Counted from the stretch's first letter, positions 46,990 to 50,950 are shown. The stretch is DNA of 64,000 nt from Intestinimonas sp. (GCA_022653075.1 JALCSB010000001.1:128327-192326); one strand, 5' to 3'. Numbers and translations are program-made. Notes: generated by a model from the sequence alone, not told the origin.

Positions 46990-47021
46990 TTTGAGCAAAC
47001 CAATCTCATCGCGGATCATGA
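46990..47021 (+). repeat. direct repeat copy 1 (TTTGAGCAAACCAATCTCATCGCGGATCATGA)
   Basis: A 25-nt identical core AAACCAATCTCATCGCGGATCATGA plus the TTTGAG prefix recurs at 48171..48203. Confidence 0.85.
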
Positions 47022-47054
47022 GTGCTGCGAAAGCTTAGGGTGCTGTAGAGGAAA

Positions 47055-47085
47055 GGGCAGAATCTACATCTGATTCTGCCCTTTT
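47055..47085. terminator. terminator hairpin
   Basis: Stem GGGCAGAATC / GATTCTGCCC followed by TTTT. Confidence 0.7.
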
Positions 47086-47090
47086 AGATT

Positions 47091-47194
47091 TGGCGGCCCG
47101 TTATGGATTCGAACCACAATTTTCCCCTTCATAAATGCACTTAGTTAAAATGCATTTATGAAGGGGGACGTCCTAACCATTGGACGAACGAGCC
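47091..47194 (-). ncRNA. tRNA-like RNA gene with a 36-nt anticodon loop (29-nt palindromic insertion), CCA encoded
   Basis: Minus-strand cloverleaf: acceptor GGCTCGT/ACGGGCC, D arm GTCC-AATGGTTA-GGAC, anticodon stem TCCCC/GGGGA, T arm TGTGG-TTCGAAT-CCATA, and GCCA 3' end. The loop contains a perfect 12-bp helix TTCATAAATGCA/TGCATTTATGAA. Confidence 0.6.
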
Positions 47195-48015
47195 AAAATA
47201 AGTCTAATAATATTGGGTAACTGACTTTTAAAGTTGGTGTCAACTTTAAAATAAGTTTTCATATATAGACATATTGAATGTTTACGGCGCTCTGGTTTAT
47301 ATTTTTTCCACTTTGCAAGTTGCTGATTAGGAATATCAGCAACTATTTTTATGTAATCGAACTCGCAGTTTTCATACAAGTATGTTGCGAGTTCAACACA
47401 AGAACGAGCAAACAGAATAAAATCATCAAATGAAATTTTCTCATAACTATTGGGGGCGGTCAATTTGGAATATTTTGTGTCTTTCTTAAAATCGTAATCA
47501 GATAATCTCTTATACTCTGAAGAATGAGTCTCAACATTACAAAGGTCGTGGACGGCACTATTGCGGACCAAGCGATAATATTCACAAAGTGCATACATCG
47601 GTTTTATATCAGGAGAAAATCGTTCACCATTTATATTTTTACTCACACTTTTTAACCAAGATTCCTCTTGCTTTTTTTCTTGAAATTGATTTTGTCCATA
47701 ATCTTTAATTTGTTGATAGAGTTGCTTTAGAAAAGTTTCAAAACATAGATGAACGTTAACAATATAACTCAGAGAGATAGAATGCACCATCTTTAATGGA
47801 TCACAGTATGTCAAAGTAATAGAGTTGTTATTTGCAAACTGAGCAAATTTATCTGTATCTGTTAGTAACACAGAATGGTCTGCCAAAAAACTTCGCTTTG
47901 ATAATTCGACGAATTGATTTATCGCACAATATTCTCCCAATATCTGTTTAAAGCTATTCAGGATATTCCTGTTTTGCACATCGCTCACCTTCGTTTGTTT
48001 TGATAATTTTATCAT
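47173..48015 (-). CDS. HEPN-domain protein (Rx4H motif), AT-rich cargo, Abi/toxin-like RNase candidate
   Basis: YYRLVRNSAVHDL contains R-N-x-x-x-H, the HEPN catalytic signature. Alpha-helical, AT-rich and on the opposite strand. The last 7 codons and the stop overlap the tRNA-like gene. Confidence 0.6.
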   Translation of the reverse strand: MIKLSKQTKVSDVQNRNILNSFKQILGEYCAINQFVELSKRSFLADHSVLLTDTDKFAQFANNNSITLTYCDPLKMVHSISLSYIVNVHLCFETFLKQLYQQIKDYGQNQFQEKKQEESWLKSVSKNINGERFSPDIKPMYALCEYYRLVRNSAVHDLCNVETHSSEYKRLSDYDFKKDTKYSKLTAPNSYEKISFDDFILFARSCVELATYLYENCEFDYIKIVADIPNQQLAKWKKYKPERRKHSICLYMKTYFKVDTNFKSQLPNIIRLILARSSNG

Positions 48016-48122
48016 AGAAACATCTGCGTTTCAACACTGAAGGCATTACTATAATAGCAATAAAGACGATTTTTATTAAAATAATAAAGGTGCTTTCATT
48101 TCGAAGTGGAAAGGCGGTCGCC

Positions 48123-48168
48123 GTGCCAAAAATTATTTTTACTTTCCACTATATGCGGACGCTCTGCC
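48123..48168 (+). pseudogene. duplicated 5' fragment of a MobL-type relaxase gene
   Basis: GTGCCAAAAATTATTTTTACTTTCCACTATATGCGGACGCTCTGCC aligns with the start of the intact relaxase gene at 49151 (ATGCCCAAGATTATTTTTACTTCCCGCTACATGCGGGATGCTCCGCC), then diverges into direct repeat copy 2. Confidence 0.7.
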
Positions 48169-48170
48169 GT

Positions 48171-48203
48171 TTTGAGAAAAACCAATCTCATCGCGGATCA
48201 TGA
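48171..48203 (+). repeat. direct repeat copy 2 (TTTGAGAAAAACCAATCTCATCGCGGATCATGA)
   Basis: Matches 46990..47021 apart from one substitution and a 1-nt indel after TTTGAG. Confidence 0.85.
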
Positions 48204-48372
48204 ATGGCAGCACCTCTATTTGCAGGGTGCAAAGGACTGCGCGGGTTGCTAAAAAAGCTGGGCGTGCTGTAAGGGAACATAGGTGGGCCTTTGTGTGAAC
48301 AGAAGCTGTTTTACATATTGCTGATGAATTTTATTGAGTAGAATGTTATAATCAATTTCAAGGAGGAATAAA

Positions 48373-49089
48373 ATGGGAAAGAGAAAAAAAGAAGTCAAAA
48401 AACCTCGGATGAGAACATATTCTGCAAATTTTATTGGTACTTCAGATGAAATCCATATATCTACAGATTCTAATGGTGCCTTAGTTATGAGAACAAAATC
48501 AGGAGAAATTCCTTTATCTGATAGGCAAATGTGGAGTGGATATGAACGGCCTAAAGGTGAAAAAAAGTTAAACTATTTTACAGATGCAATTACTATTGAC
48601 CCTAATAAAGAGATTGTAAATAAGTATAATCAAATATATGGAGTTGATACAAATTCGAAATTCTTCAATAATCGTCTGCATGTTTTAGCTGTTTTAACCA
48701 AAGCGGAAATAGTAGAAACAGATGAACAAGGTGGCAAGGTTAGCTGTAGAATTAAACAAGTTTTGAGTTGGAAGTATGAAGCTCGGCAAGAAAAGTTGGA
48801 ACAACAAGCTTGGTGGTATGCTTGTGAATACATACTTAGGGAATGTGCAATATATGCTAATCCAAGAATAGCCTTAATTGTTGATTGCGACTTGGGTAAT
48901 ATTTTCCGATATAATAAAAGAGAATTGCCTATAATAGAAAATAAGTTTTTACCACCTCAAATTCAACTTGTGTATGGCAGTGTTGATTCAGGAAAAGAAT
49001 TTATACCTAATATAATTATTAACTATACCGACAAAAAGGCAACTGAATACTTAAGCATGGAAATTAAAGGAGATTTGAAGTCGCTTTGA
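48373..49089 (+). CDS. AT-rich cargo gene: hypothetical protein with conserved acidic motifs (possible RNase H-like/EndoV-like nuclease)
   Basis: AAGGAGGA RBS and an extended -10 TGTTATAAT upstream. Motifs IYGVDTNS, EQQAWWY, IALIVDCDLGN and VYGSVDSGKE suggest a D-E-D type active site. No family recognised. Confidence 0.55.
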   Translation: MGKRKKEVKKPRMRTYSANFIGTSDEIHISTDSNGALVMRTKSGEIPLSDRQMWSGYERPKGEKKLNYFTDAITIDPNKEIVNKYNQIYGVDTNSKFFNNRLHVLAVLTKAEIVETDEQGGKVSCRIKQVLSWKYEARQEKLEQQAWWYACEYILRECAIYANPRIALIVDCDLGNIFRYNKRELPIIENKFLPPQIQLVYGSVDSGKEFIPNIIINYTDKKATEYLSMEIKGDLKSL

Positions 49090-49150
49090 TTTTGAGCGAT
49101 CAGCAGTGGTCGCTCTTTTTCTTTGCCCCAAACACAGAAAGGAGGCTGCC

Positions 49151-50950
49151 ATGCCCAAGATTATTTTTACTTCCCGCTACATGCGGGATGCTCCGCCAGA
49201 GCAGCTTCAGAATTACGTCAAGTACATCGGCACTCGGGAGGGCGTAGAGAAAATCGACGAGAGCAAAGCACAGCTTCCGGCGACGGTAAATCAACAAAAA
49301 TTGATTGGCCAGCTTCTCCGGGACATCCCGTCCGCAAAAGATATGCTTGAGTACGGCGATTACCTTCTGCGCCCCACAAGGGAAAACGCCTCTGAGTTTA
49401 TCTCCTGTGCCTTGGAGCAGAACCTTGATCTTGTTGGCAAGAGGGAAAATTATGTGGACTACATCGCAAACCGTCCCCGTGTGGAACGGATTGGTGAGCA
49501 CGGTCTGTTCACCGATGCCGGAATTCCGGTAGTCTTATCTCAGGTGCAGGAGGACGTAATCAATCACAAAGGGCCGGTCTGGACGCATGTGATTTCTCTT
49601 CGGCGCGAGGACGCCGCCCGGCTCGGATATGACAGCGGCAAACAGTGGCGGGAGCTGATCCGCAGCAAGCGGGCCATACTGTGCAAGTACATGAAAATCG
49701 ACAGTGAAAACCTCCGCTGGTACTGCGCTTTTCATAATGAAAGCCATCATCCGCATGTGCATCTCATGGTCTACTCCGCGAAGGATAACGACGGATTTCT
49801 CACCGAGTCTGCCATTGAAGCCATGCGTTCCGAGTTGGCGCACGATATCTTCCGTCAGGATTTTGCCAACATTTATGATCAGCAGGATCAGGCACGGGGT
49901 AACGTTAAGCAAGGCACTGCGGATTTGATGGAAGAACTGCTGCGACAGATATCCTCCGGCATCTGTGAGAACAAGGCAATCGAAGAAAACATTTTGCTGC
50001 TCTCCGAACGTCTTCAAAATACAGGAGGGAAAAAGGTATACGGGTATCTCAAGGCAGACGTCAAGGCTATCGTCGACCGGATCGTGGATGAGTTGGCCAA
50101 AGACGAGCGCGTCGCAAGGTTCTATGCCGCATGGGGCGGCTGGCAGAATGAAATCTATCGAACGTATACCAATCAGCCTCCGCCCCTGCCGCCGCTATCC
50201 AAACAGAAACAATTCAAGAGTATCAAAAACATGGTGATCGCCGAAGCAATGAAAATCGGCGATCACCATGTTTCATTTGAAGATAAATCCATGCCGGAGT
50301 CGGTGATACACCCGGAAGTTGCAGCCGATCTTTCTGAACGGCAAGGCGGCAGAGTTTCTGATCAAAGGATCGCTTCCGGCCTTGGCGCTCCTCATGCGCA
50401 GTGCGCCTTGGCGAAGCTGTACCTCACCGGAGAAGATGTCCCAAAGGACATTCCAAACGCAATCCGGCTGTTCACTCTATCGGCAGAACAGAAAAATGAG
50501 TACGCCGCCTATCAGCTCGGGAAGCTCTATCTCTCCGGCGAAGATGTTCCGAAAGATGTGGAGGCCGCTGTCCGCTGGCTCACTATATCAGCTGAGCAGG
50601 GAAATCAGTATGCTCAATATGCTCTCGGAAAGCTGTATTTCTATGACGGGGATGTTCCCCGCGATAAGGAGAAAAGCCTGCACTGGCTTTCCCTCTCCGC
50701 ACAGCAGGGAAACGTCTATGCGCAGTTTCTCATCGACCACATCAGCGAGTACCGCAATCCGTCCGTGTTGCTGGCGGCGACAAGGCTGATGCATCGGCTG
50801 GAGAATCTGTTCCGCGCGAATTATCACAAGGCGGCGGGCGGCGCTGCATTCCGCATCGATCGGAAGCGCCTGCGCAGGCTGCGGGAAAAAAAGCAGGCGC
50901 AGGGCCACGCCCGCGATGATCACGAACATCAACATCAAATCACTTTATGA
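49151..50950 (+). CDS. MobL/MOBP-type relaxase with C-terminal Sel1-like (SLR) repeats
   Basis: MPKIIFTSRYM..., the histidine triad HNESHHPHVHLMVYS, and a C-terminus with 3-4 repeats of the YxLGxLYxxGxxVPxDxxxAxxW type. Confidence 0.8.
   Translation: MPKIIFTSRYMRDAPPEQLQNYVKYIGTREGVEKIDESKAQLPATVNQQKLIGQLLRDIPSAKDMLEYGDYLLRPTRENASEFISCALEQNLDLVGKRENYVDYIANRPRVERIGEHGLFTDAGIPVVLSQVQEDVINHKGPVWTHVISLRREDAARLGYDSGKQWRELIRSKRAILCKYMKIDSENLRWYCAFHNESHHPHVHLMVYSAKDNDGFLTESAIEAMRSELAHDIFRQDFANIYDQQDQARGNVKQGTADLMEELLRQISSGICENKAIEENILLLSERLQNTGGKKVYGYLKADVKAIVDRIVDELAKDERVARFYAAWGGWQNEIYRTYTNQPPPLPPLSKQKQFKSIKNMVIAEAMKIGDHHVSFEDKSMPESVIHPEVAADLSERQGGRVSDQRIASGLGAPHAQCALAKLYLTGEDVPKDIPNAIRLFTLSAEQKNEYAAYQLGKLYLSGEDVPKDVEAAVRWLTISAEQGNQYAQYALGKLYFYDGDVPRDKEKSLHWLSLSAQQGNVYAQFLIDHISEYRNPSVLLAATRLMHRLENLFRANYHKAAGGAAFRIDRKRLRRLREKKQAQGHARDDHEHQHQITL

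Follow-up and report, generated by a model that had tools for sequence, protein, structure and literature searches.

A HEPN-like protein gene overlapping a tRNA-like RNA with a base-paired anticodon loop: a widespread two-part module of bacteria

We analyzed a 64,000-nt stretch of DNA from Intestinimonas sp. (GCA_022653075.1 JALCSB010000001.1:128327-192326; the whole stretch is called the window below, with positions counted from its first letter) and found on its minus strand a gene for a HEPN-like protein running into a tRNA-like RNA gene, in which a hairpin takes the place of the anticodon loop. Relatives of the two genes occur side by side on hundreds of bacterial contigs and in four phyla, and the linkage holds whether the search starts from the protein or from the RNA. 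We describe the pair as a putative RNase effector with a cis-encoded RNA partner, both of them previously undescribed. The reading that we tentatively favor is a toxin-antitoxin or abortive-infection-like module in which the RNA would be a non-cleavable tRNA mimic restraining a HEPN anticodon nuclease.

A cloverleaf with a clamped anticodon arm

An earlier note on this DNA had described a cloverleaf gene at 47194..47091, and the Rfam tRNA model bears this out: RF00005 matched 47094..47194 (minus strand) over model positions 1-71 with 48.7 bits (E 1.2e-8; gathering score 29), counting 32 nt as an insertion within the anticodon loop. The arms lie where the note had placed them:

47091..47194, minus strand: tRNA-like RNA gene, 104 nt with encoded CCA (Rfam tRNA, fold, covariance model, relatives)
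47194-47188 / 47101-47095, minus strand: acceptor stem, GGCTCGT/ACGGGCC, 7 bp
47185-47170, minus strand: D arm, GTCC-AATGGTTA-GGAC
47168-47164 / 47127-47123, minus strand: anticodon stem, TCCCC/GGGGA
47128..47163, minus strand: clamp in place of the 7-nt anticodon loop (sequence; inverted repeat of 19 nt, 95% complementary)
47118-47102, minus strand: T arm, TGTGG-TTCGAAT-CCATA
47094 and 47093-47091, minus strand: discriminator G and encoded CCA

Read on the minus strand from 47194 to 47091, the gene is GGCTCGT-TC-GTCC-AATGGTTA-GGAC-G-TCCCC-C-TTCATAAATGCA-TTTTAACTAAG-TGCATTTATGAA-GGGGA-AAAT-TGTGG-TTCGAAT-CCATA-ACGGGCC-G-CCA, and by direct reading of the sequence its variable region is the 4 nt AAAT. 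The minimum free energy fold is the cloverleaf, with the anticodon arm as one continuous 19-bp helix, and its energy of -51.9 kcal/mol compares with -24.1 +/- 3.6 for shuffled sequences (z = -7.7; 0/200 as good). Our own covariance model, R1, gave the window element 98.2 bits, and RF00005 scored 13 relatives at 44.9-54.5 bits, likewise above its gathering score. The earlier note had proposed a check with tRNA finders; the Rfam tRNA model detects the element and ARAGORN misses it, its sole call in the window being an unrelated tRNA-Ser, and among 23 related loci (L001-L023) ARAGORN called none of the tRNA-like elements. At E up to 10, Rfam matched no family besides tRNA at the window element, neither a Y RNA nor an intron.

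The open 7-nt anticodon loop of a tRNA is absent, and a 36-nt hairpin stands instead. An unpaired C (47163) precedes a 12-bp helix (TTCATAAATGCA/TGCATTTATGAA), at whose far end lie 11 nt (TTTTAACTAAG) with 3+3 nt paired in the minimum free energy fold. The core that proved to be conserved reads C-U-U-C-A opposite U-G-A-A in the window copy. Taking 29 nt out leaves 75 nt, in agreement with the calculation of the earlier note.

Protein and RNA are linked in both search directions

From the protein side, we collected loci in one-genome-per-species contigs on which a homologue could be read through to its stop codon (n = 21), and a tRNA-like gene of ~100 nt lies at the end of the open reading frame (ORF) in 20 of them. 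The 21 loci include Lachnospiraceae, Blautia, Roseburia, Dorea, Acetatifactor, Faecalimonas, Acutalibacteraceae, and a Polyangiales metagenome-assembled genome (MAG) whose protein is 26% identical to that of the window. The more distant homologues that we examined (8 proteins in 11 loci, 19-28% identity) have a tRNA-like RNA in every case, including Paracidovorax wautersii (21%), and so does the homologue on plasmid pREB4 of Acaryochloris marina (30% identity). In sum, 32 of 34 protein-found loci carry the RNA, whose position relative to the stop codon ranges from -13 to +38 nt; these loci belong to Firmicutes, Beta-proteobacteria, Cyanobacteria, and Myxococcota and span ~20-58% protein identity.

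From the RNA side, the clamp hairpin pattern CCCCCTTCATAAG...TTATGAAGGGG was found on at least 120 metagenome contigs, mostly from the human gut, and in 112 of 120 hairpin loci a family ORF stands directly upstream on the same strand (tblastn; 24-93% identity to the nearest query). The other eight are five loci cut by the contig end, two unrelated GC-rich palindromes and one orphan RNA. The palindromes (L059 3552-3633 and L064 9570-9647) were rejected as family RNAs, having neither a tRNA body nor a family ORF; they are nested, of the form GATCCCCC...CCCCCTTCATAAGGGGG..., share the exact clamp 13-mer and probably represent an unrelated repeat family. The orphan (L091 1514-1619; 93.5 bits with model R1, no ORF) is fused behind the 3' end of a truncated sugar-transferase gene, with the rearrangement junction at the 5' end of the tRNA-like gene to within a base or two, and is followed by the usual Lys/Ala-rich small ORF. 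The earlier note had held that homologues never linked to a tRNA-like element would speak against it, and the counts from the two directions, 32/34 and 112/120, show the opposite.

The spacing is narrow as well. In 55 unique modules the stop codon lies 7-13 nt before the RNA start (19 modules) or 2-38 nt inside the RNA gene (36 modules) and never farther. A stop codon inside the RNA is typically formed by U8-A9-G10 as TAG, or is a TAA, TGA, or TAG in the D arm.

The same data bear on a reversal of roles along type V logic, in which the RNA would be the harmful component, titrating a synthetase, a modification enzyme, or RNase P, and the nuclease its antidote. An RNA without an ORF is rare, with one clear case (L091), and ORFs without an RNA exist (L016 and L156), as would fit a stand-alone antidote. 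A nuclease antidote would, however, have to cut a fully paired helix, and we know of no precedent for a tRNA-mimic toxin of this kind. The characterized Rx4H proteins, moreover, are all toxins or effectors (PMC3710099), and we regard a reversal of roles as very unlikely.

The RNA covaries, and its clamped loop is nearly fixed

An alignment of 31 distinct RNA copies gave 33 consensus pairs; compensatory changes were seen in 18. With distant copies included (35 copies in a covariance-model alignment), 97.7% of the cells are standard pairs and 26 of the 33 pairs are doubly changed; none of 500 shuffles reached any of five measures, and sliding the partners by 1-3 columns left 36-51% paired. Compensatory changes are present in all four helices, and at the elbow the D loop retains its GG and the T loop its GTTCRA. 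Judged by this comparison, the RNA is a structurally constrained, tRNA-shaped gene under selection that retains all features of an L-shaped tRNA body. The test on homologues that the earlier note had suggested, for an element that follows the ORF and shows compensatory changes, thus has a positive outcome on both points, and the absence of covariation that it had named as the sign of a decayed fragment is contradicted by the 26 pairs. An attC-like or other DNA-level role for the hairpin was dropped, since the surrounding tRNA body covaries as RNA.

The comparative data also refute a decayed tRNA, an integration-site remnant, or a chance palindrome beside an unrelated gene, and we leave such explanations next to no probability. 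tRNA genes are common integration sites, and the orphan element of L091 does sit at a rearrangement junction; against this stand the compensatory changes in four helices, the strict linkage in both search directions, and the occurrence in four phyla.

Within the anticodon arm, the proximal helix is nearly fixed, as 5'-CCCC-C-U-Y-C-A / 5'-(U)-G-A-A-GGGG, and this core persists where protein identity is about 20% and where the genome has a GC content of 55-61%. Pair 27-43 is U-A in 27 copies and C-G in 4, one C of the C-run is always without a partner, and nucleotides 33-36 are base-paired in 35/35 relatives, with occasional C.A mismatches. The cores of the distant copies read CCCCCUUCACAAG... 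in L144, L152, and L154, CCCCCUCCAAAAG... in L146, and CCCCCCUCCAYCUG... in L147 and L153. Only the Polyangiales copy differs (CUUUC-G-UCUCAAG.../...UUUGAGA-G-GAAAG), keeping the architecture with a G.G mismatch instead of the bulge. Sequence varies freely in the terminal loop and, with compensatory changes, in the 5-8 pairs of the distal helix, as expected of a mere clamp. Mimicry of Shine-Dalgarno and anti-Shine-Dalgarno sequences by the CCCCCUU/AAGGGG strands was considered and dropped as unsupported numerology.

In tRNA numbering, the fixed nucleotides are C32 U33 Y34 C35 A36, facing A37 A38 together with a G and a U/C opposite C35 and A36. The clamp thus corresponds to a hairpin inserted after A36 of a complete loop CU(C/U)CAAA and pairing with that loop. 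The loop nucleotides are, by the same evidence, conserved beyond the needs of pairing, because the UCCA (C34) variants retain a C.A mismatch, their partner never being G (never UGGA), and because the facing strand in the pREB4 copy (L155) is CGAA, which breaks the A36 pair. The UCCA form belongs to the deepest protein branches, and CUCCAAA is what we take to be the anticodon loop of tRNA-Trp. The discriminator varies between A, G, U, and C and the acceptor stems differ among subfamilies, which speaks against a fixed aminoacylation identity; CCA is encoded in about half of the copies.

These positions are where enzyme-dependent splicing would have to act. The nuclease would excise the hairpin as an intron, leaving a 2',3'-cyclic phosphate and a 5'-OH, and RtcB of the host would reseal the ends to give a decoding tRNA with the loop CU(U/C)CAAA and the anticodon UCA or CCA, an inducible opal-suppressor or Trp-type tRNA. 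Excision at 36/37 does restore a textbook 7-nt loop containing U33 and A37 in every member that has the UYCA core, L023 being the sole exception, and CCA is encoded in the copies just mentioned. As in archaeal and eukaryal pre-tRNAs, where the anticodon pairs with intron sequence, an insertion of ~30 nt by the anticodon pairs with it and lengthens the arm; HEPN chemistry fits RtcB substrates, and a HEPN-type nuclease would yield RtcB-joinable ends as in splicing by Ire1 (KEN/HEPN) and RtcB. However, archaeal and eukaryal introns have two 3-nt bulges separated by 4 bp at their splice sites, whereas the helix here is continuous except for one unpaired C, and the module has no bulge-helix-bulge, no single-stranded splice site, and no EndA/Sen homologue; the cuts would fall in perfect duplex. 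The canonical 37/38 site would leave position 37 variable (U, A, or C), the discriminator and acceptor stems are unconserved, an opal suppressor would be harmful in a standard-code host, and no RtcB or ligase gene is linked among the neighbors. The tRNA introns known from bacteria belong to group I; they splice themselves, have a P1-P9 core, and are at least 200 nt long, whereas the inserts here measure 29-36 nt and the Rfam search at E up to 10 matched no intron.

We consider enzyme-dependent splicing highly improbable, and likewise the narrower claim that the hairpin is a true intron with the HEPN-like protein as its splicing endonuclease, cutting both strands beside the UYCA/UGAA core. Since bulge-helix-bulge and single-stranded splice sites are missing, the discriminator and acceptor stem are unconserved, and position 37, with an intron at 37/38, would vary and often be a pyrimidine, the comparative data lean toward a pseudo-substrate or antitoxin rather than the maturation of a suppressor tRNA.

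The invariant helix bears equally on a ribonucleoprotein, in which the protein would recognize the C-bulge/UYCA-UGAA helix and the RNA would serve it as an indispensable subunit, structural or specificity-giving, or as a sensor, the complex and not the free protein being active; in a variant, the complex would, for example, detect or compete with some tRNA binder. Protein-binding sites typically look like this, an invariant helix with a conserved one-nucleotide bulge; the stability of a tRNA fold is more in keeping with a subunit that persists than with a labile antitoxin; and the linkage and the co-divergence of RNA core and protein clade are as strict as they are for an antitoxin. On the other side, the homologues in L016 and L156 are without the RNA, the distal loop, being variable, presents no surface that would obviously serve as a guide or sensor, and there is no third conserved partner among the neighbors. 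We judge a ribonucleoprotein cofactor to be unlikely, although it carries appreciable weight.

The protein has a conserved Rx4H motif

The protein gene and the features that define it are the following:

47173..48015, minus strand: ORF of the HEPN-like protein, 280 aa from ATG 48015 (ORF list)
47548..47565, minus strand: Rx4H motif, codons R151-N152-S-A-V-H156 (RNSAVH), in the block Y146 Y147 R148 x x R151 N152 x x x H156

A search with the window ORF gave 115 homologues at E below 1e-3, and a profile search of 1.84 billion representatives gave 639 clusters at 50% identity, with E below 1e-10 for 495. Among 125 homologues (17-58% identity), G27, Y147, R151, H156, and D198 are invariant and E37, Y146, R148, N152, P188, and F196 at least 90% conserved; in a homologue alignment the same level of conservation holds for E93, which forms E93xxxK97 in the long helix preceding the motif helix. 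The AlphaFold2 model of the window protein is all-alpha, with a predicted local distance difference test (pLDDT) score of 88 for the whole protein; for residues 71-220 it is 95.5. R151 and N152 lie at the end of helix 138-155 and H156 is the first residue of the loop, E93xxxK97 lies within helix 73-106, and residues 107-137 form an insert between the two.

By the published definition, HEPN proteins have an Rx4-6H motif with a polar residue (N/D/H) directly after the R, and their hallmarks are an acidic Ex3[KR] in helix 2 and an insert ahead of helix 3 (PMC3710099). The motif and helix layout of the window protein, as seen in conservation and AlphaFold2 models, agree with this definition. We found nothing significant in Pfam, NCBIfam, PADLOC, or PHROGS for the window protein or 21 family members; the weak matches among the 21 were to single members (HepT-like, E 0.039; CARF_HEPN, E 0.012). 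Sequence and profile searches of the PDB with the family were empty. Foldseek comparison of the full model and of the core model (pLDDT 95.5) with the PDB gave no match with E < 0.15, the best being generic four-helix bundles and the HEPN toxin 7ae6_A ranking 23rd (E 1.4), and comparison of the full model with BFVD gave no significant match.

The earlier note's claim of a HEPN gene therefore stands for the RNSAVH at codons 151-156 and for the fit of motif and helices, but no significant profile or Foldseek match accompanies them. As homology tools do not confirm HEPN membership, we call the protein HEPN-like only. It is probably an RNA-cutting HEPN-type RNase of ~265 aa, an activity predicted from motif and conservation.

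The two genes overlap and would share a transcript

The ORF ends in a TAG stop codon at 47175-47173, within the D loop of the tRNA-like gene, and the overlap of 22 nt is made up of the stop, the six sense codons before it, and one further base. The earlier note was thus right to place the 3' end of the ORF inside the tRNA-like gene, its count of seven sense codons before the stop being one too many. At the other end, the true start is probably GTG 47979, giving 268 aa, because AAGGTGA precedes it, the N termini of homologues align there, and residues 1-14 have AlphaFold2 pLDDT < 50. For the deposited protein of 280 aa (Intestinimonas sp. MAG, 100% match), this means a start that is probably placed 12 codons too far upstream. 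Two flanking features may mark the ends of a transcript:

48051..48079, minus strand: promoter-like site TTAATA-17-TATTAT with extended TG (consensus match only, 9/12)
47052..47084, minus strand: 13-bp hairpin, probable two-way terminator, AAAGGGCAGAATC / GATTCTGCCCTTT (sequence reading)

The promoter-like site (48079..48051) lies 36 nt upstream of ATG 48015. The hairpin begins 7 nt past the CCA and is probably the terminator of the ORF-tRNA-like transcript, apparently in both directions; a consensus terminator scan left 47084..47052 unflagged because of its short T tail. A separate promoter for the RNA within the 3' end of the ORF was dropped, as the consensus scan had no match there. The earlier note had concluded that the two genes must be on one transcript; the overlap makes a single transcript a strong inference, short of a demonstration.

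Such an arrangement could serve a purely cis-acting 3' element, with no role in trans, that recruits RNase P and tRNA 3' processing and so sets or stabilizes the 3' end of the mRNA, or limits protein output by removal of the stop codon. The stop codon is inside the RNA gene in 36/55 modules and within 13 nt of it in the others, and the acceptor stem, T arm, and elbow GG/TTC, all conserved features, are what RNase P needs. A cis element leaves unexplained, however, why a long anticodon-arm clamp is kept in four phyla and why its proximal 9-10 nt are invariant at 20% protein identity; an ordinary tRNA or a simple hairpin would suffice. We think a solely cis-acting element improbable.

Proposed action: a tRNA mimic restraining an anticodon nuclease

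Support for the reading we favor, an RNA-held anticodon nuclease, comes from the two-way linkage, the spacing, the selection on the RNA, the conserved loop nucleotides, the Rx4H protein, and the mobile context described below. HEPN enzymes are dimers and cut single-stranded loops. We propose that RNase P and 3' processing would free a stable RNA of ~100 nt from the common transcript, and that this RNA would bind the protein dimer in place of its natural tRNA substrate. Since HEPN enzymes cut single-stranded loops and the scissile loop is here double-stranded, the RNA would stay uncut and act as a pseudo-substrate antitoxin. When the supply or integrity of the RNA fails, through phage transcription shut-off or loss of the mobile element, the nuclease would be set free to cut the anticodon loop of a cellular tRNA, for which CU(C/U)CAAA points to tRNA-Trp. 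The resulting translation arrest would lead to abortive infection or to post-segregational killing that favors the conjugative element carrying the module. In the variants with the stop codon inside the RNA gene, about two thirds of them, the RNase P cut would produce a non-stop mRNA; release of the RNA and synthesis of the toxin from one transcript would then be mutually exclusive, biasing the ratio toward the RNA. PrrC and RloC, which are HEPN enzymes, are anticodon nucleases (PMC3710099).

Several points weigh against this reading. Toxicity, binding, and cleavage are all predictions from sequence. Two Rx4H homologues without the RNA, awkward for an obligatory antitoxin, account for the exceptions among the 34 protein-found loci: L016 (4022-4819, Roseburia MAG), where a different ORF begins ~70 nt downstream, and L156 (2944-3891), a 316-aa protein on plasmid pMRAD03 of Methylobacterium radiotolerans. 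Both have an intact YYRLVRNxxVH-type motif, and no tRNA-like gene lies within range of either. Each of the 55 unique modules has a single copy of the RNA, placed after the ORF, the opposite of the ToxIN-type order. Classical antitoxins are labile, but stability would be expected of a tRNA-shaped RNA. With its U34, the majority core (UUCA) fits no standard elongator tRNA, so that the proposed target is a guess, and the body of the window copy is most like Lachnospiraceae tRNA-Glu, in a comparison confined to five tRNAs. Finally, none of the profile searches (Pfam, NCBIfam, PADLOC, and PDB) linked the protein significantly to a curated HEPN family, and the fold searches with the predicted model leave a HEPN fold neither confirmed nor excluded.

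Mobile context and neighboring genes

In the window, the module lies in a conjugative element with genes for TrbL, a VirB4-like ATPase, an M23 peptidase, an amidoligase, a MobL relaxase (Pfam MobL, E 1.3e-29), DUF3991-Toprim, and a coupling protein. The tRNA-like gene and its ORF form cassette A, on the minus strand inside this type IV secretion system/MobL element, and are one of two AT-rich cargo cassettes directly upstream of the relaxase gene. The GC content of 47100-49100 is 31-35%, against 50-55% in the flanks.

46997..47024, plus strand: direct repeat copy 1 (AAACCAATCTCATCGCGGATCATGA...), left border of the AT-rich cargo region (repeat search, alignment)
48109..48158, plus strand: duplicated 5' fragment of the MobL relaxase gene including ribosome binding site and start, 82% identical to the real start at 49137-49186
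48179..48206, plus strand: direct repeat copy 2, 27/28 identical to copy 1, between cassettes A and B
48373-49089, plus strand: cassette B, an unrelated 238-aa ORF with its own ribosome binding site

The duplicate of the relaxase start corresponds to the first 50 nt of the gene and stands after cassette A. Cassette B is preceded by a 28-nt repeat as is cassette A and followed by the true relaxase start; its 238-aa ORF has no Pfam, NCBIfam, or PADLOC match. The earlier note had taken the direct repeats and the duplicated relaxase fragment as brackets of an acquired cassette. The repeats, the fragment, and the AT-rich acquired cassette are confirmed, while the repeats do not look like the ends of a self-mobile cassette and are better read as a recombination scar; the simplest reading is unequal recombination at a hot spot between two relatives of the element with different cargo. 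A perfect 18-bp inverted repeat (AAACATGGTGATCGCCGA / TCGGCGATCACCATGTTT, 11-nt spacer) lies at 50227-50273, inside the coding region of the MobL relaxase.

Carriers of the module elsewhere include integrative and conjugative elements and conjugative plasmids. Candidate carriers in culture are [Ruminococcus] faecis JCM 15917, Blautia sp. HCP28S3_G10, Bariatricus sp. SGI.154, Paracidovorax wautersii, and Acaryochloris marina MBIC11017 (pREB4). The neighbors at other loci include KAP NTPase, HATPase_c_4, HATPase_c_3, RhuM, integrases, a methylase, and a relaxase, and at further loci ordinary metabolic genes. Some neighboring ORFs, in loci of the L002 type and others, bear RNDIAH or RRNDITH motifs of their own. 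As these would be further HEPN-like proteins, they suggest that the module at times sits in RNase-rich defense islands. We found no family member in IMG/VR (protein and RNA pattern) or among GenBank phages, and nothing matching the proteobacterial RNA in E. coli genomes.

On the same strand, ~35 nt past the RNA and about +132 to +144 nt from the tRNA-like start, lie the starts of three unrelated ORF families, each of them confined to one subfamily (example coordinates are those of the module):

L079 137-694: downstream ORF family 1, 185 aa with a Cys cluster, 36 loci
L062 141-482: downstream ORF family 2, 113 aa, Lys/Ala-rich coiled coil, 25 loci
L105 144-1394: downstream ORF family 3, 416 aa, 19 loci

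These ORFs may be subfamily-specific third components. A conserved third component was dropped, the downstream families differing by subfamily and being absent in the window, and no third constant gene was found among the neighbors of related loci. With no constant third gene and with varied surroundings, the module behaves as an autonomous two-part unit moving among contexts.

Discussion

In its logic, the module comes closest to type III toxin-antitoxin systems and to the HEPN anticodon nucleases. ToxIN, CptIN, and TenpIN likewise have an endoribonuclease toxin neutralized by a structured RNA of the same operon, as we propose here, and their anti-phage, abortive-infection role on plasmids resembles the role proposed for the module. 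Their antitoxin, however, is a set of tandem pseudoknot repeats that stands upstream, behind a terminator, and is cut by the toxin itself, whereas the module has a single tRNA shape downstream that overlaps the ORF and is presumably released by RNase P; the toxin fold is unrelated, with no PADLOC or Pfam match to ToxN, CptN, or TenpN. PrrC and RloC share with the module the Rx4-6H motif, mobile or defense loci, the proposed action on an anticodon loop, and, as we propose for the module, silencing by a bound partner until infection. Both are large proteins fused to an ATPase and kept silent by a restriction enzyme or by domains of their own, in contrast to a stand-alone protein of ~265 aa with no detectable similarity to HEPN Pfam profiles and with a proposed RNA silencer.

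HepT-MntA (HEPN-MNT, type VII) and RnlA-RnlB also combine, in two genes, a small HEPN RNase toxin with a dedicated neutralizer. There the neutralizer is a protein, an AMPylating nucleotidyltransferase or RnlB; neither kind of gene stands next to the ORF in the window, which is flanked by its promoter-like region and by the tRNA-like gene with the probable terminator, or next to the ORF in its relatives, among whose neighbors no nucleotidyltransferase recurs. In transcript architecture, the closest parallel is the MALAT1-mascRNA type of 3' end, which is tRNA-like and where an RNase P cut forms the upstream 3' end and a small RNA. MALAT1 is a eukaryotic nuclear long noncoding RNA, whereas here the transcript is a bacterial mRNA whose stop codon the cut would remove. 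YrlA, a bacterial Y RNA bound by Ro/Rsr, mimics the tRNA elbow and has a long protein-binding helix in the place of the anticodon arm. It differs in being circularly permuted, ending in a long helix, with the acceptor closed, and in its linkage to rsr/rtcB. A full-text search of the literature found no account of a HEPN protein linked to a tRNA-like RNA, and the census of HEPN proteins never mentions linkage to tRNA genes (PMC3710099).

Whatever its mechanism, the module comprises a protein family that is widespread (639 clusters at 50% identity; gut Firmicutes, Proteobacteria, Cyanobacteria, and Myxococcota) and that no Pfam, NCBIfam, or PADLOC model matched, and a structured RNA caught only by the generic Rfam tRNA model. 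With no protein model and with ARAGORN missing the RNA, annotation pipelines and defense-system finders likely overlook it. The module also raises the question of tRNA splicing by protein enzymes in bacteria; were the hairpin an intron after all, it would be the first case of protein-dependent tRNA splicing in Bacteria and would provide a mobile, switchable UGA-suppressor or a spare Trp-type tRNA. At ~1 kb, it offers a compact system for studying how a nuclease recognizes tRNA. If the RNA does hold an anticodon nuclease in check, the RNA-antitoxin class, of which type III is the model, would gain a tRNA turned into an uncuttable decoy, and the module would have a built-in dosage control, with RNase P removing the stop codon of the toxin.

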